This document shows, piece after piece, positions 8,388-35,514 of a stretch of DNA of 52,926 nt. The translations under genes and the position numbers were made by a program. Where the stretch lies: the NCBI GenBank assembly GCA_016193195.1, contig JACPSQ010000035.1:2435-55360 (forward strand), written 5' to 3'. The DNA is from Candidatus Omnitrophota bacterium. Lineage in GTDB: Bacteria > Omnitrophota > Gorgyraeia > Aquiviventales > Aquiviventaceae. The notes below the pieces were generated by a model. That model ran no database searches, had not been told where the DNA came from, and worked only from the letters and a program-made list of their open reading frames with translations. The stretch's first letter is position 1; every line of letters begins with the position of its first letter.

Positions 8388-9491
8388 GTGACAATCCCAT
8401 CAAGCCACTTTTTGGACGGCAAGACGATCTTGGTCACCGGGGGGACCGGGTCGTTTGGCCAGCAGTTCGTCGACACGGTCCTGAGACTCAGCCAGCCGGA
8501 AGCCATCCGTATCTACTCCCGTGACGAGCTCAAACAGCAGCAGATGCAGCGGCGCGTTCCGGATCAGCGGCTGCGGTTCCTCATCGGGGACGTACGCGAT
8601 AAGGAGCGGCTCTACCGGGCGATGCGAGGTGTGGAGATCGTGGTCCACGCGGCGGCGCTCAAGCAAGTTCCGGCGTGCGAATACAACCCCTTTGAAGCCG
8701 TCAAGACCAACGTGCTGGGGGCGGCCAATGTGATCGACGCGGCGATCGACTGTAGTGTTGACCGTGTGCTGGCGATCAGCACCGACAAGGCGGTCAACCC
8801 GATCAACCTCTATGGCGCGACGAAGCTCTGCGCCGAGAAGCTGTTCATCCAAGGCAATGCCTACTCAAGGGAGCGGAGGAAGCGGTTTAGCTGCGCGCGA
8901 TATGGCAACGTGGTCGCCAGTCGTGGCAGCGTGGTCCCCCTGTTCCTGCAACAACGGTCCAATGGGAGAATCACGGTGACGGATCGGCGGATGGCCCGGT
9001 TCTGGATGACCCTCGAGCAAGGGGTGGCATTCGTCTTGCGCTGCCTGGACCTCATGCATGGTGGTGAGATCTTTGTTCCGAAGATCCCAAGCATGAGCAT
9101 TATGGATTTGGCCAATGTGATCGCCCCTGGGTGCCGGATTACGTTCACAGGCATCCGGCCAGGGGAGAAGCTCCATGAGCTGCTCATTTCTCCTGATGAA
9201 GCCCAACATACCAGGGCGTTCCCAGACATGTTTGTCATCCAACCTGCCCACCCGTGGTGGACCACAGGTAGGTGGCGAGGAGGCACATCTCTGCCCGAAG
9301 GTTTTAGTTATAGCAGCGCCACGGCTCCGCGCCTGAGCGTGGAGGAGCTTGGCAGGATCGTCGCCCGGCTGGAGCAGCAGTCGGCCATCCCCGTCGTGCC
9401 AGATGGTGACGACGGCGACACGGCTCCCTTGACGCCTCCACAGCCCCGCGCACGGCCACGACGCACTCGGGTGTTGGTCAAACATGGCTGA
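8388..9491 (+). CDS. pseB: UDP-N-acetylglucosamine 4,6-dehydratase (inverting), PseB/FlaA1/CapD-type
   Basis: The start is GTG. Motifs: 'GKTILVTGGTGSFGQQFV', 'IRIYSRDELKQ', 'FLIGDVRDKERL', 'VVHAAALKQVPACEYNPFEAVKTNVLGAANV', 'ISTDKAVNPINLYGATKLCAEKLF'. A Pro/Arg-rich tail of about 35 aa extends beyond the usual length. Confidence 0.9.
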   Translation: MTIPSSHFLDGKTILVTGGTGSFGQQFVDTVLRLSQPEAIRIYSRDELKQQQMQRRVPDQRLRFLIGDVRDKERLYRAMRGVEIVVHAAALKQVPACEYNPFEAVKTNVLGAANVIDAAIDCSVDRVLAISTDKAVNPINLYGATKLCAEKLFIQGNAYSRERRKRFSCARYGNVVASRGSVVPLFLQQRSNGRITVTDRRMARFWMTLEQGVAFVLRCLDLMHGGEIFVPKIPSMSIMDLANVIAPGCRITFTGIRPGEKLHELLISPDEAQHTRAFPDMFVIQPAHPWWTTGRWRGGTSLPEGFSYSSATAPRLSVEELGRIVARLEQQSAIPVVPDGDDGDTAPLTPPQPRARPRRTRVLVKHG

Positions 9492-10710
9492 AGGAGAACC
9501 AAAGGCCGCTGCTCCCTTGGCATCCACCACGCTTGCGTTGGAGGCAAGCGTCCAGGCGCGGACGCCCATGCTGCCGTACGGCCGGCACACTGTGGTTGAG
9601 GCGGACATCCAAGCGGTGGTGGAGGTGTTGCGATCCGAGCGCCTGACGCAGGGTCCTGTGGTTGACGCGTTTGAGGCGGCGGTGGCCGAGGCCGTCGGGG
9701 CCCGCTACGCTGTGGCGTTCAGCTCGGGCACGGCCGCGCTCCATGCCGCGGTGTTTGCAGCCGGACTTGGGCCAGGGGATGAGGCGATTACAACGCCCCT
9801 GACCTTTTGCGCGACGGCCAACAGTGTGCTGTACCAGGGGGCCCAGCCGGTGTTTGCGGATGTGTGTCCTGATACGCTCAACCTCGATCCGAGCGAGGCC
9901 GCGAGGCGGGTCACCCCTCGCACGAAAGCGATCCTCCCGGTCGATTATGCGGGGCATCCAGCGGATCTTGACGCGTTCCTCGCGGTGGCCGATCGGCATG
10001 GCCTCGTCATCATCGAGGACGCCTGTCATGCCCTGGGCGCGACGTTCAAGGGTAAGCGGGTGGGGGGGCTGAGCCATATGACGGTGTTCAGCTTTCACCC
10101 CGTTAAGCACATCACGACCGGCGAGGGCGGGATGGTGACGACCGATCACCAGGGGTTCGCGCGTCGCCTGCGCGTGTTTCGCCAACACGGCATCGAGGAG
10201 GATGAGAGGCACCGGGATCCCCACCGGCCCTGGTACTACGAGATGACCGAGTTGGGGTACAACTACCGGCTGAGCGACATTGGCTGCGCGTTGGGACTCT
10301 CCCAATTGACGCGCCTCCAGGCGAACCTGGAGCGAAGGGCCGCCATCGCGCAGCGCTACCACGAGGCGTTTGGGAGTTTGCCAGGGCTGCGCTGTCCGGC
10401 GCAGAGATCCGGGGTCCGGCACGCGTGGCATCTCTATCCGATCCGCCTGGAGTCGCCAACGCACGGGATGGACAGGGCCAAGGTCATCCACGAGTTGCGG
10501 GCACGGGGGCTTGGGGTCAGCGTCCATTTCATTCCGGTGTACTGGCATCCCTATTACCGGCAGCGGCTTGGCATGCGGCCGGGGCTATGCCCTGTGGCGG
10601 AAGACGCCTATCACCAATTGATCAGCCTCCCGATGTTTCACGGCATGGGGCAGGACGAGGTTGAGCGGGTGATTGTAGCGGTGGCAGACGTCTTCAGGGC
10701 ACTGGCCTGA
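9484..10710 (+). CDS. pseC: DegT/DnrJ/EryC1-type aminotransferase, PseC-like (UDP-4-amino-4,6-dideoxy-N-acetyl-beta-L-altrosamine transaminase)
   Basis: 'LPYGRHTVVEADIQAVVEVLRSERLTQGPVVDAFE', 'FSFHPVKHITTGEGGMVTT' (PLP Lys) and 'NYRLSDIGCALGLSQL'. An alternative start at ATG 9568 (MLPYGRH) is equally plausible. Confidence 0.85.
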   Translation: MAEGEPKAAAPLASTTLALEASVQARTPMLPYGRHTVVEADIQAVVEVLRSERLTQGPVVDAFEAAVAEAVGARYAVAFSSGTAALHAAVFAAGLGPGDEAITTPLTFCATANSVLYQGAQPVFADVCPDTLNLDPSEAARRVTPRTKAILPVDYAGHPADLDAFLAVADRHGLVIIEDACHALGATFKGKRVGGLSHMTVFSFHPVKHITTGEGGMVTTDHQGFARRLRVFRQHGIEEDERHRDPHRPWYYEMTELGYNYRLSDIGCALGLSQLTRLQANLERRAAIAQRYHEAFGSLPGLRCPAQRSGVRHAWHLYPIRLESPTHGMDRAKVIHELRARGLGVSVHFIPVYWHPYYRQRLGMRPGLCPVAEDAYHQLISLPMFHGMGQDEVERVIVAVADVFRALA

Positions 10711-10717
10711 TTCCGAG

Positions 10718-12442
10718 ATGATGCAGGCGCGCTCCACAACCGATCAAGCGCCGGAGCGGTTCTATCAACGGTTTGGGCCGGACGGGCGAGTGCTGAACCC
10801 CACCTGGCCTCGGTTGACGACGGAAGCGTCCCTCCAGGCGTTCCCCTCGCGGCCGAGCGGCCGGCGGCTGCTGCTGATCAATGCGCCGATTCGGGAATGG
10901 TCCTATCCGAACATCATGCCCATCGGGCACGGGTATGTCGCTGCGGCGGCCATCATGGATGGCCATACGGTACGTGCCCTGGATCTGAATGCGGCGCGCC
11001 GAGGACCGATGCAGCTGGATGCCGAGGCCCTGGCCGCATGGGTTGAGCGACACGTGCTTGACGCGTTGGAAGAGGACAAGCCGGACGTCATTGGGCTGGG
11101 CGGCATTGTGACCCAGTACGCCCGGATCAAGCAGGTCGCCCGCCTCTGCAAGTCCGTGTATCCCGATGTCCCCATCGTGCTGGGCGGGGGTATTGCGTCC
11201 TCGATTCCGGAGTTCATGGTCCAACGCCTGCCGGTCGATGTGGCGGTGCAAGAAGAAGGCGAAGTGACGTTCTCTGAGTTGCTTCATCGGCTGGAGGAGG
11301 GGGCGTCCCTTGAAGGACTGAGGGGCACGGTGTCTCGACGGACCATTCGTCCAGGTGAGTGGGACATCCGCAATCACGGCTTGCGTCCCTCCGTCAAGAG
11401 TCGAACCCTTGGGCTGGATGCGCTGCCTTGGCCGCTGAGGACGCTCTGGCCGATTGACGGGGTCTACAAGCGCAACCCTGTCGGACACCTCAACTGGAAG
11501 ACGAAGTGGATTGATGGCGCGCCCACCGGGCCGGATCAGTATTCGGAGTCCATGATCGCTTCCAGGGGATGCCCTTATGCGGCGCGTGCGTGCGACTACT
11601 GCTACGCGGCCTATCTGGGCAAGCAGTATCGGCTCCGGAGCCCTCAGGATATAGTGGATGAAATGGAATTCCTCAAGCGGCGCTACGGGCTGTGCTACAT
11701 CCATTTCCTGGATGACCTCATGATGACGGATTTTCGGTGGGCCCTGGAGTTCTGCGCGGAGCTGCGCCAGCGCCGCCAACGGACGGGATTTGCCATCATG
11801 TGGGGCGGAACGTGTCGAACCAACATCGTGGCCGATGACGTCATTCGGGCTCGACAGGAAGGCCGGCCGCACATGCTGGAACAGGCGTTTGAGGTCGGGA
11901 TGCGGCAGGCAGGCTATGGGGTGGAATCCGCGAGCCCCACGATCCTCAAGGCCATTGATAAGAGCGGACAGACTGTGGAGAAGATGGAGCTGGCGATTCG
12001 GGAGACTCGGCGCATTATGGGCTACGCGGACTGCTCCTTCATGATCGGTTCTCCAAGCGAGTCTCGAGAGACCGTTCAGGAGACGGTGGACTTTTGCCGG
12101 CGCGTGGGGCTCAAGCCGGAGGTGTTCTTCTTCACGACGGCCTATCCGGCGACGACCTTTTGGGCCCTGGCGCTGGAGAAGGGCCTGATCGCCAAAGCCG
12201 TCACCGGCAAGCCCGGTCCGGCTGATGAGGACATCATTGAGGAGTACCTGATCCGGCTGGGTGAGCAGGGGGAGGCGATTCGGACGAACTTCAGCGACCT
12301 GCCGGATGAGGAAGTGGTGGACCTCTCGTGGTGGGCGATTCAGGAGCTGGGGGCCCAGAACACCGTGCGGCATCCCCACACGGGTGATGAGCAGGTGTTG
12401 AGGAAGAGCGCGGTTCGTGGCGCGACGCGGGCGGACCTCTAG
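10718..12442 (+). CDS. B12-binding-domain radical SAM protein (class B-like)
   Basis: The N-terminal B12-binding-like region is 'RLLLINAPIREWSYPNIMPIGHGYVAAAAIMDGHTVRALDLN...VIGLGGIVTQY...VPIVLGGGIAS'. The radical SAM core is 'IASRGCPYAARACDYCYAAY' followed by 'IHFLDDLMM'. Confidence 0.85.
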   Translation: MMQARSTTDQAPERFYQRFGPDGRVLNPTWPRLTTEASLQAFPSRPSGRRLLLINAPIREWSYPNIMPIGHGYVAAAAIMDGHTVRALDLNAARRGPMQLDAEALAAWVERHVLDALEEDKPDVIGLGGIVTQYARIKQVARLCKSVYPDVPIVLGGGIASSIPEFMVQRLPVDVAVQEEGEVTFSELLHRLEEGASLEGLRGTVSRRTIRPGEWDIRNHGLRPSVKSRTLGLDALPWPLRTLWPIDGVYKRNPVGHLNWKTKWIDGAPTGPDQYSESMIASRGCPYAARACDYCYAAYLGKQYRLRSPQDIVDEMEFLKRRYGLCYIHFLDDLMMTDFRWALEFCAELRQRRQRTGFAIMWGGTCRTNIVADDVIRARQEGRPHMLEQAFEVGMRQAGYGVESASPTILKAIDKSGQTVEKMELAIRETRRIMGYADCSFMIGSPSESRETVQETVDFCRRVGLKPEVFFFTTAYPATTFWALALEKGLIAKAVTGKPGPADEDIIEEYLIRLGEQGEAIRTNFSDLPDEEVVDLSWWAIQELGAQNTVRHPHTGDEQVLRKSAVRGATRADL

Positions 12443-12461
12443 GGTGATGGATGAAGGAAGG

Positions 12462-12857
12462 ATGCGATTGATTCTCCTGGGTGCTGGCTCAATCGGGCGG
12501 CGTCACCTCCAGAATGCCCTGGCGTTGGGGCATGAGGTGGTGGCCGTCGCTGATCCCGATCCCTCGAGCCTGGGGCTGGTCCGACGCCAGTGGCACATCC
12601 CCGTGCTGACGGCAGACGTCTCGGAGGCGTTTCGACAGCGGGCCGAGGCGGCGGTGATCTGTTCGCCGACCGTAGAGCATGTGTCGCAGGCTCGGTGGGC
12701 GGTGCGCGAGGGCCTCCATGTGCTTGTTGAGAAACCCCTTTCGCACACGCTGGATCAGGTGGATGAACTGATTGCGGAAGCGGCTGCCGCCCAGCGGGTT
12801 GTCCTCATCGGATGTAACCTGCGGTTCTTCCCAAGCTTGCAGGGGAGTGCTCCTTGA
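12462..12857 (+). pseudogene. Gfo/Idh/MocA oxidoreductase, N-terminal Rossmann fragment ending at a frameshift/deletion
   Basis: ATG 12462 is preceded by 'gaaggaagg'. The sequence reads 'MRLILLGAGSIGRRHLQNALALGHEVVAVADP...VICSPTVEHVSQARWAVREGLHVLVEKPLS...LIGCNLRFFPSLQ', then GSAP-stop. The matching C-terminal domain continues in another frame (next feature). Confidence 0.7.
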
Positions 12858-14931
12858 CTGGATCCACGAGTTTGATTATCTGCGCTGGTTCTTTGGGCAG
12901 GTCGGGGAGGTGTTCTGCTATACCGGGACCACGGGGACGCTGGATGTGGAGGTCGAGGACTACGCGGAAGTCCTCTTGCGATTTGACGCCGGCGTCGTCG
13001 CGAATGTCCATCTGGACTACCTGCAGCGGACCTACCGTCGCTCATGCGAGATTATCGGCGCTGAGGGCGTGCTCATCTGGGACTACATCGCCCAGACCGT
13101 GACGTGCTACGGCAGGACGGATCGCCAGGTCGAAGTCTTCACAGAGCAGATCGATACAGAACGGAATCAGATGTTCCTTGAAGAAAGGATGAACGGTGAG
13201 GGGGTCTTTCGCTCGGTCAGCGTGATTGCCGACATGGCCCTGTCGTATGAGGGATCGTATGATCTGGCCTTGGCGACCGTGGAGGCCGCCGCGGAGGCCC
13301 ATGCAGGCGCCATCAATTTTCAGATTTTCCTCGCGGATGAGTTGGCCGTGCCAGGCTACCACTATTACCCCTTGTATACCCGGCTGGAATTGCCGCCCGA
13401 ACGCTGGGCGAGCCTCATCACTCATGCACATCAGCGTGGCCTGAAGGTTACCGCGAATGTCTTCGGAGCCGCGACGGCCATGTGGCTTGCCGAGGCCGGC
13501 GTCGACGCCTTCAAGGTTCACGCGGCCGATGTCGGCAACCGCCCCTTCCTGCAGCGGATCGGTGCGCTCGGCAAGCCGGTCCTCCTGTCGGCTGGCGGCA
13601 GTACGCTCGGAGAAATCAGCCATGCCCTCCGCGTCCTCCAACAACACGGCGCCCCTGAGGTGGCCCTCCTGGCGGGCGTGCAGAACACCCCGACGGCAGT
13701 GGACGACACCCACCTCGCCCGCATCCGGTTGTTGAAAGAACGCTTCGGCCTACCCGTGGGCTATGCCGATCACCTGGATGCCGACGCCCCTCTGGCTCCC
13801 GTCGTGCCGCTCCTGGCGATTGCAGCCGGTGCTGACTTCGTGGAAAAACACATCACCCTGGCCCGGGCGCTCAAGCGCGGGGACTATGTCTCTGCGCTGA
13901 ACCCGGATGAGTTTGCGGAGTTTGTCTTGCGTCTCCATGAGGCTCGCCGGTGCGTGGGGGTGCCGGGAGGGGATTTGGGAGAAGGGGAGCTCTCCTACCG
14001 AGAGGGCATGAAGAAGCGCGTCGTGGCAAGGCGGAGCCTCGAAGCCGGCCACGCGCTGCGTGAAGAGGATCTGACGCTGCTCAGGACGGACGAACCGAGC
14101 GATCTGTGGACGCTGGAACACGCCGTGGGTCGGGCCGTTTCACGAACGATTTCCCAATACGGCTCGATCGGCGAGCGCGATCTCTCGGCTCGTCCTGACG
14201 CTCTCAAACGGCTCGTGGCGGTGCTGTTGTGCCGGGCGAGTTCCTCCCGGCTGTATGCCAAACCGCTTCAGCGCGTCGGGGACAAGACGATCCTCGAGCA
14301 TCTCATTGGCCAGATCCGCTTGATCCCACGCCTTGACGAGATCATCCTGGCTATCAGTGAAGGGCCGGCGAATGCAGGATTTGTCAAACTGGCCAACCAG
14401 TTGGATCTGGACTATGTCATCGGGGACGAAGAAGACGGGCTGAGCCGCATGCTTCGCGCTGCGGAGTTTGCGCGTGCGGACACCGTGTTTCGCGTCACCA
14501 CAGAGAATCCGTTCTTGCACATCGAGAACATCAACCAGCTCATCGAGACGCATGCGGAGCGCCAATCGGATTTGACCTATTGCGACCGGCTGCCGGAAGG
14601 GACGTTTTCGGAGCTGGTGGAGCTGTCCGCCTTGCGGCGGTCCTATGAGCGGGGAACCAGACGCCACCGCAGCGCCTGGGTCAATCTCTATATCCGGGAG
14701 CACCCGGAGCAGTTCCGCATCGCGACCCTGCTGCCGCCTGAGGAACTGCAGCGTCCGGAGATCAGGCTGACCGTGGATTATCCGGAGGACCTGATCGTCG
14801 CGCGCAAGGTCTATGAGGCCTTCGACGGCCGGATGCCGATCCCCATCCGCTCGATCATCAGGTTTCTGGACGAGCATCCGGAGATCAAGGCGATCAACCA
14901 AGGCCTGGAAGTTGGGGCGCTGCCCGTCTGA
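12772..14931 (+). CDS. Fusion ORF: Gfo/Idh/MocA C-terminal remnant + NeuB/SpsE-like synthase with SAF domain + SpsF/PseF-type cytidylyltransferase
   Basis: 'GVLLDWIHEFDYLRWFFG...EDYAEVLLRFDAGVVANVHLDY' is the Gfo C-terminal domain. 'VIADMALSYEG...AINFQIF...LLSAGGSTLGEI...VGYADHLD...FVEKHITL' plus the SAF-like 'RVVARRSLEAGHALREEDL' is NeuB-like. 'VAVLLCRASSSRLYAKPLQRVGDKTILEHLI...VIGDEEDGLSRML...FRVTTENPF...RLTVDYPEDL' is the cytidylyltransferase. The functional start is uncertain: TTG 12772 per the ORF track, and the internal ATG 13189 would give a NeuB-like+CT protein. Confidence 0.75.
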   Translation: MRKRLPPSGLSSSDVTCGSSQACRGVLLDWIHEFDYLRWFFGQVGEVFCYTGTTGTLDVEVEDYAEVLLRFDAGVVANVHLDYLQRTYRRSCEIIGAEGVLIWDYIAQTVTCYGRTDRQVEVFTEQIDTERNQMFLEERMNGEGVFRSVSVIADMALSYEGSYDLALATVEAAAEAHAGAINFQIFLADELAVPGYHYYPLYTRLELPPERWASLITHAHQRGLKVTANVFGAATAMWLAEAGVDAFKVHAADVGNRPFLQRIGALGKPVLLSAGGSTLGEISHALRVLQQHGAPEVALLAGVQNTPTAVDDTHLARIRLLKERFGLPVGYADHLDADAPLAPVVPLLAIAAGADFVEKHITLARALKRGDYVSALNPDEFAEFVLRLHEARRCVGVPGGDLGEGELSYREGMKKRVVARRSLEAGHALREEDLTLLRTDEPSDLWTLEHAVGRAVSRTISQYGSIGERDLSARPDALKRLVAVLLCRASSSRLYAKPLQRVGDKTILEHLIGQIRLIPRLDEIILAISEGPANAGFVKLANQLDLDYVIGDEEDGLSRMLRAAEFARADTVFRVTTENPFLHIENINQLIETHAERQSDLTYCDRLPEGTFSELVELSALRRSYERGTRRHRSAWVNLYIREHPEQFRIATLLPPEELQRPEIRLTVDYPEDLIVARKVYEAFDGRMPIPIRSIIRFLDEHPEIKAINQGLEVGALPV

Positions 14932-14933
14932 CG

Positions 14934-16217
14934 ATGCGCGACTCGCATTCGCAGGAGTGGCTCGCCCGCAGCCGCCAGGTGATTCCCGGTTGCACACAAA
15001 CGTTCAGCAAAGGTCCTACGCAGTTCGTGCAGGGCGCCTCGCCAGCCTTCCTCGTCCGCGGGCGCGGCAGTCACGTCTGGGACGTGGATGGCCAGGAGTA
15101 TCTCGATTACTCGATGGCCCTAGGGCCGGTCATTCTGGGATATCGCGATCCGGTCGTCACCAAGGCGGTGAAACGGCAACTAGAGTCTGGGACGATCTTT
15201 TCACTGCCACATCCACTTGAAGTCGAGGTCGCCGAACTGCTCACCCAGGTTGTCCCATGCGCCCAGATGGTGCGATTCGCCAAGAACGGCTCTGATGCGA
15301 CCGCGGGCGCGGTGAGACTCGCCAGGGCCGTGACAGGACGGGATCTCATCGCGTGCTGTGGCTACCATGGGAATCAGGACTGGTACATTGGGACGACCAC
15401 GCGCAATCGGGGCGTGCCCGAATCGGTTCGACGCTTGACCATCCCGTTTGTCTATAACGACATTGACAGTCTTGCGCGGATCTTCGCCGAGCATCCCCAC
15501 CAGGTTGCTGCGGTGATCATGGAACCGGTAGGCCTTGAGCCGCCGCGCGAGCAGTTTTTGGAACAGGTACGCGACCTGACGCATCGGGAAGGCGCGGTCC
15601 TCATCTTTGATGAAGTGCTGACAGGATTCCGCGTGGCGCTGGGTGGGGCGCAGGAGTACTTCGGCGTCACACCTGACCTGGCCTGCTTCGGCAAGGCCAT
15701 GGCGAACGGCTACCCCCTGTCAGCCGTGGTCGGACGACGGGAGATCATGGAAGCGTTTGAAGAGGTCTTCTTCTCGTTTACGTTCGGGGGGGAAGCGCTC
15801 TCGCTGGCCGCGGCGAAGGCGACGATCACAACGCTGCGCAGCCACGCGATCATTCCGCAGTTGTGGGAACATGGTCGTCGCCTTCAAGACGGATTCAACC
15901 GACTGGCGGCTCAGTTCGGTCTTGCGCAGCGCGTCGTCTGTGAGGGACTGCCGCCGCGGACGATGGTGAGCTTCACCGATGGGACCGGAGCTGAGTCGCT
16001 GCCAGTGAAGAGCTTGTTTCAACAGGAGTGTCTGACGCGCGGCGTGCTGTTTTCAGGAAGCCACAACCTGTGCGCCAGCCACACTCGGGAAGACGTGGAA
16101 CAGACCCTCCGGGTGTATCGGGAAGCGATGGCGGTCGTGGCAGAGGCCGTGGCGGCTGGCGATGTCCTGGAGCGGCTGCAGGGTACGCCGGTGCAGCCGG
16201 TCTTCCGTCGCGCCTAG
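14934..16217 (+). CDS. Class III (HemL/glutamate-1-semialdehyde aminomutase-like) PLP aminotransferase
   Basis: 'RGRGSHVWDVDGQEYLDYSMALGPVILGY', 'FDEVLTGFRVALGGAQEYFGVTPDLACFGKAMANGYPLSAVVGRREIM' (Lys in FGKAM). Confidence 0.9.
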   Translation: MRDSHSQEWLARSRQVIPGCTQTFSKGPTQFVQGASPAFLVRGRGSHVWDVDGQEYLDYSMALGPVILGYRDPVVTKAVKRQLESGTIFSLPHPLEVEVAELLTQVVPCAQMVRFAKNGSDATAGAVRLARAVTGRDLIACCGYHGNQDWYIGTTTRNRGVPESVRRLTIPFVYNDIDSLARIFAEHPHQVAAVIMEPVGLEPPREQFLEQVRDLTHREGAVLIFDEVLTGFRVALGGAQEYFGVTPDLACFGKAMANGYPLSAVVGRREIMEAFEEVFFSFTFGGEALSLAAAKATITTLRSHAIIPQLWEHGRRLQDGFNRLAAQFGLAQRVVCEGLPPRTMVSFTDGTGAESLPVKSLFQQECLTRGVLFSGSHNLCASHTREDVEQTLRVYREAMAVVAEAVAAGDVLERLQGTPVQPVFRRA

Positions 16218-16230
16218 CATCAGGTCATCC

Positions 16231-18102
16231 ATGCGGATCGTATTCCTGGGAAATAACTGGGTCGCGTGGCAGGCGCTTCGCTGGTTGAAGGCCCAAGGCG
16301 AATTGATCGTGGGATTAGTGGTGCATCCGCCCCACAAGCAGCGCTATGGCGAGGAGCTGCTCAGCACCGTGGCAGGTGATGCGACGAAGTGCTTTGACGG
16401 CTCGCGGCTGCGGGAGCCGGGAACGATTGCGGCCATTCGGGATCTTCAGGTTGAGATGGCCGTGTCCGTCTCGTTTGGTTACCGCTTGGATCCGTCGTTC
16501 CTGGCGCTGTTCCCGCGCGGGGTCATCAACCTCCATGCAGGCTACCTCCCGTACAACCGGGGCACGCATCCCAACATCTGGAGCATTGTCGAAGGGACCC
16601 CGGCTGGCGCGACGCTCCATTACGTCGATGCCGGGATCGACACGGGAGACATTATTGCACAACGAGCGATTCCAGTGGAGCCAACGGACACGGGTGAGAC
16701 GCTGTATCGAAAGCTTGAACGAGTCTGCATGGAGCTGTTGATGGCAACGTGGCCGTCAATTCGCGACGGCACGGCACCTCGGCACCCACAGCCGTCAGGA
16801 GGCACGGCGCATCAGCGGCGGGATGTGGAGCGCATCGATGAGATCGCACCCGAGCGCCGGTATACAGCTAGGGAATTGATCGACATCCTTCGCGCACGGA
16901 CCTTCCCTCCCTACCCCGGAGCCTATCTCCGGCATGGGGGGCAGAAGATCTCCCTGCGTCTTTCTGCCGCCAAGGAAGACCACCCCGCCCCATGGCTTCA
17001 GCCAACGATTGATATCGGGTGCCGGCGTATTGGTGCTGGCTATCCAACCTACATCGTTGCGGAGATTTCAGCGAATCACAACCAGGACTTTGAGCTGGCC
17101 GTGAAACTGCTTCAGGCGGCCAAGGCTGCCGGGGCGGATGCGGTGAAGCTGCAAACCTACACCCCAGAGACCATGACGATTCCTTGTCACCGCGAGCCGT
17201 TTCAGATCAAGGGCACCCTGTGGGATGGACAGACCCTCTACGATCTCTACCGCCGAGCGTACACGCCGTGGGAGTGGCACCCAAAGCTGAAAGCGGTCGC
17301 GAACGAGATGGGTCTCGATCTGTTTTCGACCGCCTTTGACGCCACGGCTGTGGATTTCCTGGAATCCCTGGGGGTGCCGGTTCATAAGGTCGCTTCGTTT
17401 GAGATGGTGGATCTGGCTTTGTTGGCGAAGATGGCCCTGACCGGCAAGCCGGTGATCCTCTCGACAGGGATGGCAACCTTCCAGGAGATCGCTGAAGCGG
17501 TGCAGACCGTTCGCGGGGTGGGTGCGACGACACAAGTCGCGCTGCTCAAGTGCACAAGTGCCTATCCCGCACTTCCTGAAGAGATGAACCTGCGTGCCAT
17601 CCCGCACTTGACCGAGCAGTTTCAGGTACCCGTCGGCCTCTCGGATCACACCCTGGGCACGTCCGTTGCACTTGCCGCAGTCGCGCTTGGCGCCTGCATG
17701 GTGGAGAAGCATTTGACCCTCTCTCGCTCTGTTGCCACGCCGGATGCGGCCTTTTCCCTTGAGCCCGACGAGTTCAAGGCGATGGTGAAAGGGGTTCGGG
17801 AGGTGGAGCGGGCCCTGGGAGAGGTGCGTTATGGAGTCAGTCGTGGGGAGACCCAGAGCCAGGTCTTCCGGCGTTCCCTGTTCGTGGTGAGAGGGATGAA
17901 AGCCGGAGAGGTGTTTTCAGAGCGGAATGTCCGGTCGATCCGGCCGGGTTATGGGCTCCACCCCCGATACCTGAAGGACGTGTTGGGGCGGCAGGCGAGG
18001 TGTGATATTGCTGGGGGGACACCCTTCGCGTGGAAACTGGTGGACCCAGCGGGAGCAGAGGCTGCCTCGCCGGAAGAACCGAGTGCCAAGCGTGTGACCT
18101 GA
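16231..18102 (+). CDS. pseI: Fusion: Fmt-like N-formyltransferase domain + pseudaminic acid synthase (PseI/NeuB family) with SAF domain
   Basis: I prefer ATG 16231 ('MRIVFLGNNWVAWQALRWL'). The formyltransferase triad context is 'INLHAGYLPYNRGTHPNIWSIVEGTPAGATLHYVDAGIDTGDII'. The synthase part starts around 17005: 'TYIVAEISANHNQDFELAVKLLQAAKAAGADAVKLQTY', 'VGLSDHTLG', 'MVEKHLTL', and SAF 'SLFVVRGMKAGEVFSERNVRSIRPG'. Confidence 0.85.
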   Translation: MRIVFLGNNWVAWQALRWLKAQGELIVGLVVHPPHKQRYGEELLSTVAGDATKCFDGSRLREPGTIAAIRDLQVEMAVSVSFGYRLDPSFLALFPRGVINLHAGYLPYNRGTHPNIWSIVEGTPAGATLHYVDAGIDTGDIIAQRAIPVEPTDTGETLYRKLERVCMELLMATWPSIRDGTAPRHPQPSGGTAHQRRDVERIDEIAPERRYTARELIDILRARTFPPYPGAYLRHGGQKISLRLSAAKEDHPAPWLQPTIDIGCRRIGAGYPTYIVAEISANHNQDFELAVKLLQAAKAAGADAVKLQTYTPETMTIPCHREPFQIKGTLWDGQTLYDLYRRAYTPWEWHPKLKAVANEMGLDLFSTAFDATAVDFLESLGVPVHKVASFEMVDLALLAKMALTGKPVILSTGMATFQEIAEAVQTVRGVGATTQVALLKCTSAYPALPEEMNLRAIPHLTEQFQVPVGLSDHTLGTSVALAAVALGACMVEKHLTLSRSVATPDAAFSLEPDEFKAMVKGVREVERALGEVRYGVSRGETQSQVFRRSLFVVRGMKAGEVFSERNVRSIRPGYGLHPRYLKDVLGRQARCDIAGGTPFAWKLVDPAGAEAASPEEPSAKRVT

Positions 18103-18115
18103 TCCGGTTGGTACG

Positions 18116-19234
18116 GTGATGGCGGTGGTGTTGTTTCGGACAGACGCTGCTCCTGCAGTTGGCCTCGGCCACCTGCGACGGTGCCTTTCGCTGGCGGCAG
18201 CGCTCCAACGGCAGGATGTGCGCAGTGTGTTTGTGGTCCCGGAGGATCGACAGGTTCGCCGGTGCGTCAGGGAGGCAGGGTGCAGCATCGAGATCGTGGA
18301 GCGTGTCACGGCGGGGGATGCCGTTGATCTGCAGCACGTGCTCCGTGCGGCAAGCCGCTCCGAGGCCGCCGCGGTGATCGTGGATTCCTACCAGATCGGT
18401 GCGGACTACCTGGAGGCGCTTCGGCAGGCAGGACTGTATGTCGCGGTCATTGATGATCTGGCAGCCATGGCCTTTCCGTGCCACGTGGTGGTCAACGGTG
18501 GGCCGCATGCGTGCCGGTTGCCGTACCGTTCGTCCTCCGGGGAAACCACGTTCTTGCTCGGTCCCTCCTATGCGTTGCTGGGTCCAGCATTCTGGAACGT
18601 TGGCCCTCGACCGGTGCGCCAGACCGTGCAGCATGTCCTGCTCACGCTGGGCGGGGCGGATCCTCATCACCTGATGCCGAGGCTGCTGGGCCTGCTCGAC
18701 GATCTCCCTGGCGAGTTTGGCGTCACGGCCGTGATTGGCCCATTCTTCCAGAACCGTCTTGAGGTTCAACATGTGGCCAAGCGGTGCCAACGAACGGTGA
18801 GGCTCGTTGATGCGCCGGCGTCCCTGCGTGACCTGATGCTCGAGGCGGACCTTGCTGTGTCGGCTGGCGGACAGACCTTGTTCGAGCTGGCGCGTGTGGG
18901 ATGTCCCGCCGTTGCCGTCAGGACCGCATCGAATCAGGTCGCTCAGCTACGGGCCTTTGTGGAGTCTGGAGCTATGCGCCTTGCAGGAGACGCCGGGGAT
19001 GCCCACGTGATGGCTGCCGTACGTGACAGCGTGGCCTCATTGGTGGGGGATCAGGGGGAACGAGGTCGCATGAGCCTGGCGGGCCGTCGGCTCGTCGACG
19101 GACGAGGCGCCCAACGGACCGCCGACGCGATTGCAGCGGGGATTCGGACGCGGCTGGCCGCGGCGATCAAGCGCAATGAGGTGGAGCACCGGCTCGAAGG
19201 GCGCATGGTCTCGCCGGTGTTTCGGACGGCGTGA
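18116..19234 (+). CDS. pseG: PseG-like UDP-2,4-diacetamido-2,4,6-trideoxy-beta-L-altropyranose hydrolase (GT28-C-like fold)
   Basis: 'VVLFRTDAAPAVGLGHLRRCLSLAAALQRQDV', 'VLLTLGGADPHHL', 'ADLAVSAGGQTLFELARVGCPAVAV'. The start is GTG 18116 or ATG 18119. Confidence 0.8.
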   Translation: MMAVVLFRTDAAPAVGLGHLRRCLSLAAALQRQDVRSVFVVPEDRQVRRCVREAGCSIEIVERVTAGDAVDLQHVLRAASRSEAAAVIVDSYQIGADYLEALRQAGLYVAVIDDLAAMAFPCHVVVNGGPHACRLPYRSSSGETTFLLGPSYALLGPAFWNVGPRPVRQTVQHVLLTLGGADPHHLMPRLLGLLDDLPGEFGVTAVIGPFFQNRLEVQHVAKRCQRTVRLVDAPASLRDLMLEADLAVSAGGQTLFELARVGCPAVAVRTASNQVAQLRAFVESGAMRLAGDAGDAHVMAAVRDSVASLVGDQGERGRMSLAGRRLVDGRGAQRTADAIAAGIRTRLAAAIKRNEVEHRLEGRMVSPVFRTA

Positions 19235-20346: not shown

Positions 20347-20515
20347 GCCGTCGTCTCCGACGGGCGATGCGGCGGGGGGAGCATGTCACCTGGGAGGCGC
20401 TTGAGTGACCATGGCGCGGCAGGTTCGGCATGTGTCGCTGGTCCCAGCTCGGGGAAGGAACGCGACTAGCAGCGTGGAGCGGCGGGTCCCTCGAGGGATG
20501 CGAGGTCGCGTGCTC

Positions 20516-21061
20516 ATGGGATCACGGCTGTGCCTGCGACCACTGACGGAGGCTGACGTGACCACGGAGTACCTGAGGTGGCTGAACGATCCCGAGGTCA
20601 CGCGGTTCCTCGAGGTCGGTCGGCAGCGCTCCACGCGCCAGACGGTGCGCAGGTACCTCACGCGGTTCCACGGCAGCCGAACGGACTTCATCTTTGCGAT
20701 GATCGAGAGGGAGACCGGACGCCACATCGGCAACGTCACCCTCAATCGGATACATCGAGTTGACCGCACGGCCGATACGGGCCTGATGATCGGACGGAAG
20801 GACCTGTGGGGAAAAGGATATGCCAGCGAGGCCTGGAGTCTTGTGCTGGCGCATGCGTTCCGGGATCTTGGGGTGCGGAAGGTGGTAGCGGGGGTGGTAG
20901 TGGACAACGTCCGGAGCCTCCAGGCCCTGAAGAAAGTTGGTTTTCGCGTTGAAGGGGTCCTTCGCCAAGAGTGGTTCGTCAACGGGACCTACAAGGATAT
21001 CGTGCGGCTCGGCCTGTTCAGCCATGAGTTCGAGCCTAAGAGCGCTCTAAAGGGTGGATGA
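20516..21061 (+). CDS. GNAT-family N-acetyltransferase (RimJ/RimL-like; candidate PseH-type step)
   Basis: I prefer ATG 20516 ('MGSRLCLRPLTEADVTTEYLRWLNDPEV'). Also 'IGNVTLNRIHRVDRTADTGLMIG...WGKGYASEAWSLVLAHAF..LGVRKVVAGVVVDNVRSLQALKKVGFRVEG'. Confidence 0.8.
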   Translation: MGSRLCLRPLTEADVTTEYLRWLNDPEVTRFLEVGRQRSTRQTVRRYLTRFHGSRTDFIFAMIERETGRHIGNVTLNRIHRVDRTADTGLMIGRKDLWGKGYASEAWSLVLAHAFRDLGVRKVVAGVVVDNVRSLQALKKVGFRVEGVLRQEWFVNGTYKDIVRLGLFSHEFEPKSALKGG

Positions 21062-27449: not shown

Positions 27450-28441
27450 TGCTGCCAAACCCAGAGCTCGTGCAGCAGCTCTTTCAGGCGTACTATGCGA
27501 CTGAGCCAGCCCGTCAGGAGGCCTACGTCTCATCCCATTGGGCCGACTACAGCGGCCAGTTCGACGTCATCATGGACTCCGAGGGCAGCATCCGCAAGTT
27601 GGTGGGCAGAGGGTTTGGGGGCATGACCACGCGCAATCCGCTGGAGGTCCTGGTTCAGTATGCCGGCCACCTCTCGTATCTCTCCTGGCTCCCGAATCGC
27701 CGGGAGATCCTGGCCTTGATGCGGGTCGCTCAACCGGTCTGCCTGGCGATGGGGTTTTTCCTCTCCTTCGATGCCTTCAGGCAATTGTGTGCCTTGGCGC
27801 TCATCCGAGGGTGGATGAGTCCTGCGGTGCGTGCAAAACGTTTAACCGTCCTGATGATCGGGGACGGGTACGGATTCCTCTCGTCCATGGTGAAGACCCT
27901 CTACCCCAGGGCAACGCTCGTGCTGGTGGATATCGGCCGAACCCTCTTGTTCCAGAGCATCTACTGTCAGCGGGCGCACCCGACCGCCAGGCATTACGGG
28001 ATGACTGGGGATCGGCTCAACGAGGCCGCAACGCTGGCCGACCACGATTTCATCTATTGTCCGACGGAATACCTCGATGCCGTGCGGCCCTTGCGCTACG
28101 ACCTCGCGGTGGCGATCGCCTCCCTGCAGGAAATGAACGCCGCGACCGTGGAGCGCTACTTTCGGTTCTTGAGGGACCGTCTGCACGAGGACCATCTCTT
28201 CTACTGCTGCAACCGGGAATCCAAGGTCCTGCGGGGAGGCGAGGTCTCGACGTTCGCCGGGTATCCGTGGGATCCGCGCGATCGCCACCTTGTGGATGAG
28301 CGTTGTCCGTGGTACCAGTATGCCTGTTCCTGGCGGACGTGCGGCCCGGGGCCTCGCCTCTTCGGTCTGAGGGTTCCGTTCATCAACGCCTTTGACGGGC
28401 CGTTTCGGCATCGTCTTTCGATCCTAGCTCGGAGGTCGTGA
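27446..28441 (+). CDS. Putative SAM-dependent (sugar O-) methyltransferase
   Basis: ATG 27446 makes an ATGA overlap with the GT2 stop. The class I motif-I-like stretch is 'LTVLMIGDGYGFLSSMVKTLYPRATLVLVDIG'. The remainder is not confidently assignable. Confidence 0.55.
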   Translation: MMLPNPELVQQLFQAYYATEPARQEAYVSSHWADYSGQFDVIMDSEGSIRKLVGRGFGGMTTRNPLEVLVQYAGHLSYLSWLPNRREILALMRVAQPVCLAMGFFLSFDAFRQLCALALIRGWMSPAVRAKRLTVLMIGDGYGFLSSMVKTLYPRATLVLVDIGRTLLFQSIYCQRAHPTARHYGMTGDRLNEAATLADHDFIYCPTEYLDAVRPLRYDLAVAIASLQEMNAATVERYFRFLRDRLHEDHLFYCCNRESKVLRGGEVSTFAGYPWDPRDRHLVDERCPWYQYACSWRTCGPGPRLFGLRVPFINAFDGPFRHRLSILARRS

Positions 28442-30291
28442 TGGGGTCTTCGGGATTGATGATCGGCTCCCGTCTCGTTGACGAGCAGCACCCGCTCCTC
28501 ATCGCCGAGATCGCCTCGGCGCACGACGGTCAGGTGGAGCAGGCCTGTGCGCTGGTCCGGGCGGCGGCCGATGGGGCAGGCGAGGCCGTCAAATTTCAAC
28601 TGGTGATCGCGGAGGAATTGCTCACGCCCTCCCACCCGGACTTCGAGATGTTCCATCGCCTGGAACTCAAGCTGCAGGACTGGCAGACAGTGGTGGGGGA
28701 AGCGCGCCAACGGGGATTGATCTCGAGTGCCGATGTGTTCGGGGAGCAGAGCCTTCGGCTCGCCCAAGACCTCGGGATCCAGCTGCTGAAGATCCCCTCG
28801 TCCAGCTTGACGGATCCGGTCCTGGTTCCCCTCGTGGCCTCGCGGGGTGTGCCCACCCTGCTCTCTGTTGCGGGGGCGACGGAGGAGGAAATCGCGTGGG
28901 TGGTTGAGCAATTCCGGCAGGCCGGGCATCGCGCGTTTGTCCTGATCCACGGCTTTCAAGGCTTTCCGACCCCGCTGGCGGCGACGCACCTCAACAGGCT
29001 GTCTTGGTTGCGTCAGCGCTTTGCATGCCCTGTGGGACTTTCCGATCACCTCCCGGCCGACACGGCGGTCGCGCGACACCTGCCGCTTGTCGCGGTGGGG
29101 TTGGGCGCATCGGTGATTGAGAAGCACCTGACGCAAAGCCGCAGCCGGCGAGGTCCTGACTGGGTGTCCGCGCTCGAACCGGCTGAATTTGGGCAGCTTC
29201 AGGAGGCGCTGCGACACATAAGTGCGGCGTTCGGTCCTGAGGAGGGAGCGTGCTGGATGGAGGGGGAAGCGCGGTACCGCCGGCAGATGCGTCGGCAGCT
29301 CGTGGCTGGGCGGACCCTTCAGGCCGGCGAGATCCTCACCGCCGACAAGATCACTCAACGTCGCGCCATCGCGCCGGGCAGCATGGATCCCTGGTTTTTC
29401 CCTCGGCGGGTGGCGGGCAAGACCTTGCGGCGGTCGTTGTCACCGGATGAGGCGATCACGTGGGACTCGCTGAGCGATCCCCTCGTGGCGGTCCTGATCG
29501 CCGTCCGCATGAAGTCGGCCCGGCTTCCTCGCAAGGCGCTGGCGGATCTTGCCGGAAAGCCCGTCATCGAACGATTGGTGGAGCGGATGAAAACCGCCCG
29601 CCATCCCCAGCGGCTGGTGCTCTGCACGTCCACCCATGCCGATGACCGGGTCTTGGTGGAGCTGGCCAGGCGGTTGGGGATCGAGTGGGTCTGCGGGGAG
29701 GAAGAGGATGTCATGGCGCGATTCCTCCGCGCCGCCGAACAGACGCAGGCCGAGCTCATCGTGCGCGTGACAGGGGATAACCCGCTGACGGACGCCGAGA
29801 CGATGGATCGGATGATCGTCAGCCACCTCGAGCGCGACGTGGAGTACACCTACACGGACGACCTCCCCTTCGGCACCCGCCCCGAGATCATCTCCGTGGA
29901 AGCCCTGCGGCGCGTCCAGGCCTTGGCGGAAGATCCTGGGCAGACCGAGTACATGACCGCCTACCTCAAGCAGCCCGAGGCCGTGAAGTCCTACCGGTAT
30001 GTCGTGCAGGACGCGCAGCTGGTTCGACCCCACTACCGGCTCACCCTGGACACCCCTGAGGATCTCGCAGTGTTGCAGCAGATCTACGCGCGGTTCGGCC
30101 CCGACGGATCAACCGTGTCGTTGCGGGAGGTGATTCGGCTGCTGGATCAATCGCCGGAGCTGGTGGCGATGAATGCCGCCGTGCAGCAGCGTCAGGTCGC
30201 CGGCGTGATCAATGCGCGTCTGCGGGCTCCACGCGCGCCTGCGGAGGCAGGCGTCGTGGACATTGCAGGAGGGGATGAGGATGCTCGGTAG
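28438..30291 (+). CDS. Fusion: NeuB/SpsE-like synthase with SAF domain + SpsF/PseF-type cytidylyltransferase
   Basis: 'PLLIAEIASAHDGQVEQACALVRAAADGAGEAVKFQLV', 'LLSVAGATEEEI', 'VGLSDHLPAD', 'VIEKHLTQ', and SAF 'QLVAGRTLQAGEILTADKI'. From about 29480: 'VAVLIAVRMKSARLPRKALADLAGKPVIERLV', 'VCGEEEDVMARFL', 'VRVTGDNPL', 'RLTLDTPEDL'. Confidence 0.85.
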   Translation: MMGSSGLMIGSRLVDEQHPLLIAEIASAHDGQVEQACALVRAAADGAGEAVKFQLVIAEELLTPSHPDFEMFHRLELKLQDWQTVVGEARQRGLISSADVFGEQSLRLAQDLGIQLLKIPSSSLTDPVLVPLVASRGVPTLLSVAGATEEEIAWVVEQFRQAGHRAFVLIHGFQGFPTPLAATHLNRLSWLRQRFACPVGLSDHLPADTAVARHLPLVAVGLGASVIEKHLTQSRSRRGPDWVSALEPAEFGQLQEALRHISAAFGPEEGACWMEGEARYRRQMRRQLVAGRTLQAGEILTADKITQRRAIAPGSMDPWFFPRRVAGKTLRRSLSPDEAITWDSLSDPLVAVLIAVRMKSARLPRKALADLAGKPVIERLVERMKTARHPQRLVLCTSTHADDRVLVELARRLGIEWVCGEEEDVMARFLRAAEQTQAELIVRVTGDNPLTDAETMDRMIVSHLERDVEYTYTDDLPFGTRPEIISVEALRRVQALAEDPGQTEYMTAYLKQPEAVKSYRYVVQDAQLVRPHYRLTLDTPEDLAVLQQIYARFGPDGSTVSLREVIRLLDQSPELVAMNAAVQQRQVAGVINARLRAPRAPAEAGVVDIAGGDEDAR

Positions 30292-31351
30292 GTATTATCA
30301 AGAAGTGGGATGGCTCAGGCGCAGGGTCGCCGCGGCGAGAGAGTTGTGGAAGCGCCGATTCGAGTGGCGGTTTCTCCTGTACCGGGCGAAGTTTCATTGG
30401 TCGCATCGGCTGGATCTGCCCAGCGCCTTTCCCGCCCACCTCGATATCGAGACCACCGACGCGTGCAATCTCCGTTGCATCATGTGCGTGCAGGGCATCG
30501 GGGAAGGAGTCAAGGATACCGGCATGATCGAGATGGACTTTGCGAAACGGCTCATTGATGAAGGGGCTCGCAATGGCCTCTACTCGATCAAGTTCAACTG
30601 GCGGGGCGAACCCGCCCTTCATTCGGGATTGGCGGAGCTGGTGCGCTATGCCAAAGCGCGGGGGATCCTGGAGGTGCAATTCAACACCAACGGGATTCCC
30701 TACACGGAGTCCAAAATCAGGGAGCTGGTGTTGTCCGGCCTTGATCGGGTGATCTTCTCCATGGATGGCGCGTCGAAGGACACGTATGAGCGCATCCGCG
30801 TGGGAAGCAGCTACGACAAGCTCGTCGAGAACGTGAAGTTCTTTCATGCCATCCGGGAGGCCCTGGGCCGGGAACGGCCGTTCATCCGCATTCAGATGGT
30901 TCGGATGAAAGCCAACCAGCACGAGGTCGACCAGTTCGTGGAGATGTGGAAGCCCTTCGTGGACGACATTCGGATTGAGGATGTGTCGGACCGCGGCCAA
31001 GGTGAGCAACTCTCCGTGGGGGACTGGGTCACGACAGGCCGGAAGCGCTGCCCGCAACCCTGGCAGCGCATGGTCGTCTCTCGAGATGGGAAGGTCCTGC
31101 CGTGCTGTGCGGACTGGCATCGCGAGTTCATCATCGGGGACGCGACCCAGGAATCCCTGAAGGCGATCTGGCGTGGCAAGCGGATGGAGATGATGCGCCA
31201 GGTGCAGCGGGAGGTCCGGTTGGATCAGGTCAGCCCCTGTCGCCAGTGCTACGTCAAGGAGAGTTTTGTGTGGAAGCGGCGTCCCACGCCGGCGGCGAGC
31301 GAGCCGCCCGAGACCCCGCAGCCGCATGAGGACGCCGACGTCACGGTGTAA
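30275..31351 (+). CDS. Radical SAM enzyme with a partial SPASM/Twitch-like C-terminal Cys domain
   Basis: The CX3CX2C motif is 'ETTDACNLRCIMCVQG'. 'IKFNWRGEPAL' is the GGEP-like element. The C-terminus reads 'CPQPWQRMVVSRDGKVLPCCADW...SPCRQCY'. Start is ATG 30275 or 30281, the latter after 'ggagggga'. It overlaps the upstream stop. Confidence 0.85.
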   Translation: MRMLGRYYQEVGWLRRRVAAARELWKRRFEWRFLLYRAKFHWSHRLDLPSAFPAHLDIETTDACNLRCIMCVQGIGEGVKDTGMIEMDFAKRLIDEGARNGLYSIKFNWRGEPALHSGLAELVRYAKARGILEVQFNTNGIPYTESKIRELVLSGLDRVIFSMDGASKDTYERIRVGSSYDKLVENVKFFHAIREALGRERPFIRIQMVRMKANQHEVDQFVEMWKPFVDDIRIEDVSDRGQGEQLSVGDWVTTGRKRCPQPWQRMVVSRDGKVLPCCADWHREFIIGDATQESLKAIWRGKRMEMMRQVQREVRLDQVSPCRQCYVKESFVWKRRPTPAASEPPETPQPHEDADVTV

Positions 31352-31355
31352 CCCG

Positions 31356-35400: not shown

Positions 35401-35514
35401 CCCACCGAGGCGCGGCTCCAGGCCTTCAGGCAGGCGGAGGACGCACGCGACCCCGACGTGGCTGAGGCGGCGGCTGACGCGCGACCGGAAGCTGGGCTGA
35501 CCACGGTTGCATAA
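32473..35514 (+). CDS. Fusion: PseG-like (GT28-C-type) domain + ~650-aa region of unknown function
   Basis: GTG 32473 is in frame with the ORF-track start 32413, which lies deep inside neuB. The PseG-like part is 'VTIHLQGGRQIGMGHVVRMLWLAQSL', 'VVTLGGSDPHGV', 'ADVAICASGHTLFEMLSVGTPVLAI'. After about aa 400 I see no motif I can assign, except the GT-B-like 'HVVLYASSSVALAALSHGIPVIFVD'. Confidence 0.75.
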   Translation: MSPLPLEIDPPHVTIHLQGGRQIGMGHVVRMLWLAQSLTARGLAVEMLLRGEPEAAAMIRQAGFPVQAYSAGASAVVTVERYLDQPGPQPSVWVNDCLTVSPSVHAALQRRAIPIVSLDDEGRGLSRLDLVVNAMPAFWQEALPTGAQMYQGPEYMILNPLVKVYHDRPRPIRTRPSQAVVTLGGSDPHGVIFNVLRALATMPSALEWHVFVGPLFAHRRALDRWQKRLAGQVCLRWHDGQSEVIPTFAQADVAICASGHTLFEMLSVGTPVLAIANARHEIVNGRYFASLGACHFLGLHTAVTPGRIGQAVRQLLADPTQRARLSQRGQSYIDGRGAERVTELLERLARRPVSARRVVEAVEQQAHAAAPTGPTAREDGHPGVLLCDRLEPLMRLSRRHGLSQARFIVLSETSEHAAIRGWLRERLGAEELPYVELSRARRQAFQPRYIEFIGRFNRTHRSPFWLAMPFTAKSMLSTGLCRNTFQFLLIVELLQTSDRPLIVITHNRTMADQVVLWARVQPRWVCNAVRGRSVLKRLFKRFTPLAILVAMIRTSVVWVLSRRFRLDGDRWRDATIVVTTFPNSSIQLPVYREAYFGSLPASLTQHGQRVVLFALYAERALSHILALRRVSQGLPVVPQEAYLTWPDLLACGVRALIQWMKRFPYREPVQIDGISVDVLVEREIAESCQSRSLFWHLCIAAAARRLGQRLAPARCLYPFENRAWEKMFLIGLREASPHTETIGYQHTVFTFAHTNLFFGEGEARLTPLPNCILTAGEVTKQRLEEHGRYPDGLLRLGCALYQRQPQSLERRTSRPVQLTNLLVALSNDREEYVRVLQFLREALADLHGYQIRLRPNPGLGVRLLEEALATVRHPAGGRYDVSRTSLPEDLRWAHVVLYASSSVALAALSHGIPVIFVDVGKFLDPDPCLAMHDLKWAVDEPSALHPTLRRIAALPDEMFELQQRRALAYVERYFPAPTEARLQAFRQAEDARDPDVAEAAADARPEAGLTTVA

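Follow-up and report, generated by a model that had tools for sequence, protein, structure and literature searches.

The 52,926-nucleotide stretch of DNA from an uncultivated groundwater bacterium (Candidatus Omnitrophota) analyzed here (referred to below as the window) carries, on the forward strand at positions 16231..18102, an open reading frame (ORF) that encodes a 623 amino acid protein with four Pfam domains, in which a sugar N-formyltransferase and the pseudaminic acid (Pse) synthase PseI are joined in a single stop-free translation. The formyltransferase catalytic domain occupies residues 1-197 (16231..16821), with the Pfam Formyl_trans_N match at residues 53-170 (E = 8e-22; 78.3 bits against a cut-off of 26.1), and is followed by an N_formyltrans_C β-hairpin dimerisation subdomain (PF18216; residues 198-244, 16822..16962; E = 3e-14; 52.7 bits against a cut-off of 25.8). 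After a segment that holds the inter-domain linker and the start of PseI (residues 245-272, 16963..17046), and that lacks any equivalent of the stop and start codons found between the genes of split relatives, comes the PseI domain itself, composed of a NeuB TIM barrel and a SAF domain (residues 273-598, 17047..18024; Pfam NeuB at residues 294-532, E = 4e-90, and SAF at residues 547-602). The fused protein scores at equivalog level on the NCBIfam PseI model TIGR03586 (473.5 bits against a cut-off of 340) and under the cut-off on the sialic-acid synthase model NeuB_NnaB (321.6 against 399.65), and its PseI part is ~70% identical to standalone PseI proteins. The longest ORF opens at 16162, still within the upstream gene, whose end is at 16217; since, in addition, all relatives begin with MRI(L/V)F, equivalent to 16231, the real start is 16231.

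A preliminary description of this DNA, made from its letters alone, had proposed an in-frame fusion to a canonical PseI, and our analysis bears this out. Logan contigs from four groundwater metagenome runs, all belonging to one study and possibly including the source sample, cover 16100-18200 without gaps or indels, and their sole difference is an A>G substitution at 16758 in one run of the four. It could be argued that an assembly or sequencing error joined two genes, or that separate proteins are made from an internal start, given that the two genes are separate in all 20 genome and metagenome loci inspected and often overlap in different frames, so that a one-base error could fuse them. However, the Logan contigs were built independently and are uninterrupted, and 4 contigs on record encode exactly this protein. 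Ten further fusions are read in frame across linkers that differ in length, and neither ATG nor GTG was seen between 16963 and the conserved N-terminal strand of PseI, which leaves this explanation barely credible. The ORF at 16231-18102 is a genuine in-frame fusion and not an indel artefact.

Both modules fold in the full-length AlphaFold2 (AF2) model (predicted template modelling score, pTM, 0.50), with a low-confidence linker at residues 251-255. The linker measures roughly 15-25 amino acids, and the predicted local distance difference test score (pLDDT) falls below 50 at about residues 251-260; the two modules would be joined by a flexible connection. A complex prediction for the PseI domain and the formyltransferase domain (residues 1-250) returned a score of 0.00 and a mark of 0.32, values that bear neither way on contact between the modules.

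The N-terminal domain carries the catalytic triad Asn100 (16528-16530), His102 (16534-16536), and Asp137 (16639-16641; all on the forward strand), which is invariant across an alignment of 131 family members. The two motifs quoted in the preliminary description are present, with NLHAG running from residue 100 and DTGDII from residue 137, and the NxH and DxG motifs align with those of PseJ and LgrA. All 28 invariant family positions are kept, and an AF2 model of the domain, based on 80 homologues, has a mean pLDDT of 89.7, with values above 90 across the core and a low-confidence tail from residue 251. These data bear on the idea that the domain is an inactive structural or regulatory remnant and that the protein works only as PseI. 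Two features could be read that way, namely Ala103, which directly follows the catalytic His where 97% of the family has Pro, and the fairly long branch (0.43) of the window protein on the formyltransferase tree. Nevertheless, active PseJ has Ile at the Pro position, the triad and the invariant positions are intact, the core is modelled with confidence, and without this domain the window would have no PseH-type N-acyltransferase to finish the pathway, so that an inactive domain appears very unlikely.

Among solved structures, the top sequence match of the N-terminal domain is PseJ (6ci2/6ci4; E = 3e-32, 115 bits, residues 74-201), followed by the LgrA F domains (linear gramicidin synthetase formylation) and by sugar 4-N-formyltransferases (WbtJ and Rv3404c), with Fmt, ArnA, and PurN ranking lower. 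A Foldseek search with the whole domain gave template modelling (TM) scores of 0.76-0.81 to 6v2t, 4pzu, 4nv1, 5vyt, and 4yfy, the nearest folds being ~245 amino acid 4-N-formyltransferases (the Shewanella and Pseudomonas congelans enzymes, Rv3404c, WbtJ, WbkC, and VioF). Placement relative to characterised enzymes rests on these ranked hidden Markov model (HMM), PDB, and fold scores, which point to a PseJ-like core in a VioF-class sugar 4-N-formyltransferase architecture. The earlier assignment of the N-terminal ~250 amino acids to the sugar N-formyltransferases therefore holds, being backed by Formyl_trans_N, PF18216, and the invariant triad, and comparison with Fmt and PurN also falls on the sugar N-formyltransferase side.

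Methionyl-tRNA formyltransferase (Fmt) shares the superfamily fold and the catalytic triad with the window domain, which in turn lies in a sugar-pathway context. We rejected it as an identity for the domain, which scores 95.7 bits on TIGR00460 against a cut-off of 201.5 and has no Formyl_trans_C (PF02911) tRNA-binding domain. It should be noted that JGI names many stand-alone members of the family (P0121-P0240) "methionyl-tRNA formyltransferase"; this looks like a misannotation, since their domain content and pse context indicate sugar N-formyltransferases.

The closest architectural counterparts of the domain are the VioF, WbtJ, Rv3404c, WbkC, Shewanella, and P. congelans enzymes (4yfy, 4nv1, 5vyq, 5vyt, 6v2t, and 6v33), which have the same combination of Formyl_trans_N and PF18216 (TM ~0.8) and act on nucleotide-linked 4-amino-4,6-dideoxyhexoses, which they formylate at the 4-amino group, the position proposed for the window enzyme. 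However, they are only 20-26% identical to the window domain, no synthase is attached to any of them, and their substrates, going by PDB titles, are dTDP- or GDP-linked Qui4N or perosamine and not a UDP-linked L-altro sugar.

The other reference point is PseJ of Anoxybacillus kamchatkensis (PDB 6ci2, 6ci4, 6ci5, and 6edk), for which we rely on PDB molecule names and on a report in which this formyltransferase is credited with completing the pathway to 5-acetamido-7-formamido pseudaminic acid, Pse5Ac7Fo (PMC11040635, Chem Sci 2024). PseJ shares the NLH...LPxN(K/R)G and DTG(D/E)II motifs with the window domain, and its presumed substrate and product are the same. Whereas PseJ, at about 190-205 amino acids, stands alone and lacks the N_formyltrans_C hairpin, the window domain is longer (~250 amino acids), possesses this hairpin together with a complete N-terminal half, and is fused to PseI. 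As the match to PseJ covers the core and not the full length, the window domain belongs to a longer subfamily distinct from PseJ.

The window as a whole is one long co-directional polysaccharide cluster that encodes a flippase, an O-antigen-ligase-like protein, heptosyltransferases, and many glycosyltransferases. Within it we identified, in an operon-like array and all on the forward strand, PseB (8388..9491; inverting UDP-GlcNAc 4,6-dehydratase, step 1 of the pathway; TIGR03589, 463.7 bits against a cut-off of 407.75), the PseC aminotransferase (9484..10710; TIGR03588, 465.3 bits against 423.5), and the UDP-sugar hydrolase PseG (18116..19234; TIGR03590, 185.4 bits against 153.55). In Campylobacter jejuni and Helicobacter pylori, the canonical Pse pathway comprises PseB, PseC, PseH, PseG, PseI, and PseF; the window shares PseB, PseC, PseG, and PseI with it at equivalog level, and has a folate-dependent formyltransferase instead of the PseH acetyltransferase. 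No PseH above the cut-off was found in the window or in the rest of the 1.04-Mb, 64%-complete genome, and PseG lacks a GNAT domain, with no PseH match within it.

We compared 80 pse loci of species-representative genomes and 80 metagenome loci. A formyltransferase lies near pseI in 14/80 species-genome loci, and in 6/80 metagenome loci pseI is directly preceded by a formyltransferase gene of its own; split arrangements were the only ones that the metagenome scan returned. Separate homologues of 254-264 amino acids (47-55% identical to the window domain) sit directly upstream of pseI, after a GNAT-less pseG, in L001, L002, L021, L043, L052, and L057. In L001 the stop codon of the formyltransferase gene (fmt) is immediately followed by the ATG of pseI in the same frame, and in L002, L021, L043, and L052 fmt and pseI overlap, each read in a frame of its own. 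At this position L022, L046, L062, and L079 have a short PseJ orthologue of 188-204 amino acids, the L022 copy being a full-length PseJ match (residues 2-190, 198 bits).

The PseG proteins of formyltransferase-bearing loci have 351-361 amino acids and no GNAT domain. Where the formyltransferase is missing, pseI is typically preceded by an ORF for a ~500 amino acid PseG that ends in a GNAT domain or for a small separate GNAT, and the GNATs of these loci match the PseH model at 39-55 bits. Using a purpose-built HMM derived from PseG-linked GNAT domains, we detected a strong PseH-type GNAT in 0/14 formyltransferase-bearing loci versus 38/66 formyltransferase-free loci (Fisher p = 4e-5). The formyltransferase thus replaces the PseH-type GNAT in the same slot, and the two are mutually exclusive.

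Other proteins also occupy this position. Among the pse loci that lack both a formyltransferase and a PseH-type GNAT, L013, L015, L016, L023, L025, L028, L034, L039, L044, L051, L065, L068, L073, and L078 encode directly upstream of pseI a ~250 amino acid protein that starts with M(R/K)IA..QP.YLPW.GYFDL. This protein looks WbqC-like, and it may represent a third kind of N7-modifying enzyme. In L003, L056, and L060, and also in L007, L010, L027, L030, L038, L059, and L071, a PIG-L/LmbE-type deacetylase (AHPDDE..GCGG, recognised by eye) is encoded directly upstream of pseI. The first three of these loci have, besides the deacetylase, a formyltransferase ~2.2 kb upstream, a combination that recalls the pairing of such enzymes reported for a Kuenenia nonulosonate cluster.

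A separate GNAT does exist in the window, as had been noted before, although its ORF (20405..21061, forward strand; Pfam Acetyltransf_3) is longer than first described, the earlier start at 20516 corresponding to its residue 38. We considered this protein as a PseH candidate and rejected it: it scores 38.1 bits on the PseH model TIGR03585 against a cut-off of 93.1, and 26.9 bits on the HMM of PseG-linked GNAT domains, on which true members score 52-241. The solved structures closest to it are spermidine acetyltransferases of the SpeG type, and the list contains no PseH structure. Since homologues of the window GNAT co-occur with a PseH-type GNAT in L017, L049, and L058, it is more plausibly an accessory enzyme than a PseH substitute.

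The presence of this GNAT is one of the observations behind a different account of the locus, in which the formyltransferase acts on another amine, supplied by a GFO-type oxidoreductase together with a class-III aminotransferase, encoded shortly before the fusion, or by a second DegT aminotransferase, while acetylation is carried out by the SpeG-like GNAT or by a PseH that was not assembled. The product would then be a Pse5Ac7Ac-type sugar with an additional formamido group, or an unrelated formylated sugar. The class-III aminotransferase gene does lie directly upstream of the fusion, and beside the fmt-pseI pair in L001, L002, L021, L022, and L043; likewise, with the genome 64% complete, a PseH gene could be missing from the assembly. 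However, class-III aminotransferase genes are also found where a PseH-type GNAT is present and the formyltransferase is lacking (L007, L031, L035, L045, L047, and L055) and are absent from 9/14 formyltransferase-bearing loci. Their occurrence with either acyl enzyme shows no specific coupling and argues against the class-III aminotransferase supplying the formylated amine. The mutual exclusion of formyltransferase and PseH-type GNAT in one slot, and the coexistence of window-type and PseH-type GNATs, which are therefore not equivalent, also speak against formylation of another amine, and we consider it unlikely.

Taken together, it is probable that the fused protein is a bifunctional enzyme of the Pse pathway that leads to Pse5Ac7Fo, a formylated sugar resembling sialic acid, or to a further modified form of it. 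PseB and PseC would produce UDP-4-amino-4,6-dideoxy-β-L-AltNAc, the presumed substrate of the formyltransferase. The N-terminal domain, acting in the place of PseH, would use N10-formyl-tetrahydrofolate to formylate this PseC product at its 4-amino group; the separately encoded PseG would remove UDP, a step lying between formylation and condensation; and the C-terminal PseI domain would condense the resulting 2-acetamido-4-formamido sugar with phosphoenolpyruvate to yield Pse5Ac7Fo. Other enzymes of the cluster may further modify the sugar before it enters a surface polysaccharide. Our data show directly what the domains are, that the catalytic residues and the reading frame are intact, that the formyltransferase replaces the PseH-type GNAT, and that the fusion recurs; we infer this substrate and product, as well as any kinetic benefit that the fusion would bring. 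An N-formylated Pse product, already suggested in the preliminary description, is supported as the best reading by the triad, the bona fide PseI domain, and the equivalog-level PseB, PseC, and PseG of the same cluster. FolD is encoded in the genome, which makes a supply of formyl-tetrahydrofolate plausible; formyltetrahydrofolate synthetase (FTHFS) was not found in this 64%-complete genome, whose incompleteness means that this is no evidence of absence.

Several points weigh against this pathway. The long, ~255 amino acid type of formyltransferase has no biochemistry on record, and the window domain, besides having Ala103, matches PseJ over the catalytic core only (residues 74-201) and is 35-39% identical to the short PseJ orthologues. 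No equivalog-level PseF is encoded in the window, where the cytidylyltransferase domains are SpsF/KdsB-like; a PseF-like gene on contig C58 of the same genome, with 137 bits, stays under the cut-off of 205.7. The gene order, with the fusion preceding pseG, is unlike the pseG-fmt-pseI order of the relatives. In addition, the products of further aminotransferases in the cluster (class-III, 14934-16217; DegT, 39908-41143) might be formylated instead, and the 4-amino group of the PseC product is one that the window GNAT might in principle acetylate as well.

The window protein is not the only one of its kind. Fusions in the formyltransferase-PseI order are rare, being found only in the window and in ten other 90%-identity clusters (P0002-P0011; 52-62% identical), set against 2654 matches for stand-alone formyltransferase homologues at E <= 0.001. 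Both the length and the sequence of the linker vary among the 11 fused proteins. In a tree built from the formyltransferase part, fusions are interspersed with stand-alone proteins, and 5 changes are needed, at least 2 of them forced by the starred branches; therefore, the fusion arose more than once (at least twice). The spacing from the hairpin to the first PseI strand is 16 residues in the window and 15 positions, including the stop, in L001, a similarity that fits a simple loss of the stop codon. It is plausible that such proteins originated from adjacent, translationally coupled fmt and pseI genes through loss of the intervening stop and start codons. A library of 50%-identity representatives contained no full-length representative of the fused family, only a junction-spanning fragment (P0295).

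Fusions of PseI to other domains were sought among the 150 best PseI cluster representatives (P0241-P0390), of which 52 are at least 440 amino acids long. In 26/150 representatives, all of them among the 52 long forms, PseI is preceded or followed by a PseH-type GNAT domain, and some of these are triple fusions of 739-970 amino acids. Five of the 52 carry a formyltransferase domain, in either order, for example PseI followed by the formyltransferase (P0241, P0267, and P0307) or a Fmt/ArnA-like domain followed by PseI (P0332), and one long representative (P0264) has an ATP-grasp domain. A further 23 long forms are unexplained.

The joining of step 3 (N-acylation) to step 5 (condensation) is therefore a recurrent theme for PseI. 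The preliminary description had called the coupling of formylation to condensation an odd pairing; the coupling stands, and PseG is indeed encoded separately, but the pairing is not odd, as it is explained by the recurrent fusions of PseI to N-acyl enzymes and by gene order, the relatives having pseG-fmt-pseI with fmt and pseI abutting or overlapping. Gene adjacency at least lies behind the joining, and the enzyme that determines the acyl group may also have been inherited together with a synthase that suits it. The PseG-GNAT fusions, which are widespread among environmental bacteria, likewise join an N-acylating enzyme to a later enzyme of the pathway, the partner in the window being PseI and not PseG. 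One could go further and propose that fusions of PseI to the enzymes that set the N7 acyl group (formyltransferase or GNAT in either order, or ATP-grasp) reflect a physical assembly in which the acyl-setting enzyme works together with a co-adapted synthase, perhaps bracketing PseG, with the effect that each acyl variant is both channelled and passed on as one unit, or that the long formyltransferase, the conserved class-III aminotransferase, and a B12 radical S-adenosylmethionine (SAM) enzyme build an undescribed Pse derivative; we hold these broader proposals to be doubtful. We found no description of a formyltransferase-PseI fusion in the searchable literature, which is not proof that none exists.

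The chemistry itself is already known through PseJ, and the fusion reveals no new chemistry. What appears to be new is a long, hairpin-bearing formyltransferase subtype in pse clusters and its covalent fusion to PseI. Pse sugars with various N-acyl groups decorate many bacterial surfaces, and making defined variants of them is a bottleneck in glycobiology (PMC11040635). A natural bifunctional enzyme could shorten the chemo-enzymatic synthesis of Pse5Ac7Fo. Moreover, the large family of 2654 matches can be read as PseH-replacing sugar formyltransferases rather than Fmt, and the content of the pseG-pseI slot (GNAT, formyltransferase, or another enzyme) offers a simple genomic rule for the N7 substituent. 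A seemingly odd fusion of non-consecutive steps becomes, in the same way, an instance of a recurring PseI theme.

Some further features of the cluster are worth recording. The class-III aminotransferase upstream of the fusion (14934-16217) is glutamate-1-semialdehyde-aminomutase-like (NF004856, 445.7 bits against a cut-off of 486) and is kept in pse clusters of several phyla (e.g., L001, L021, L022, L031, L045, L047, and L055), whichever N7-acyl enzyme is present. A GFO/IDH/MocA oxidoreductase is split, with its NAD-binding Rossmann half in ORF 12417-12857 and its C-terminal half opening ORF 12772-14931 in another frame; the latter ORF runs on as a fusion of NeuB, SAF, and CTP_transf_3 domains. 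This split corresponds either to a frameshift (real or due to an assembly error) or to a broken gene in a multi-domain fusion.

The cluster contains four NeuB-family synthase domains (in 12772-14931, 16231-18102, 28438-30291, and 31266-32492), two of which are fused to SpsF/KdsB-like cytidylyltransferase domains, and only 16231-18102 reaches the PseI cut-off. The ORF at 32413-35514 encodes a 1033 amino acid protein without a Pfam match, whose first ~340 residues are PseG-like (~25% identity) and match the PseG regions of many loci; its N-terminal part is predicted to be a second PseG-like domain. Finally, the same genome encodes on contig C58 (58342-59217; L081, L168) a second, short PseJ-like formyltransferase, a 224 amino acid ORF that is 33% identical to the window domain and directly adjoins a GNAT.

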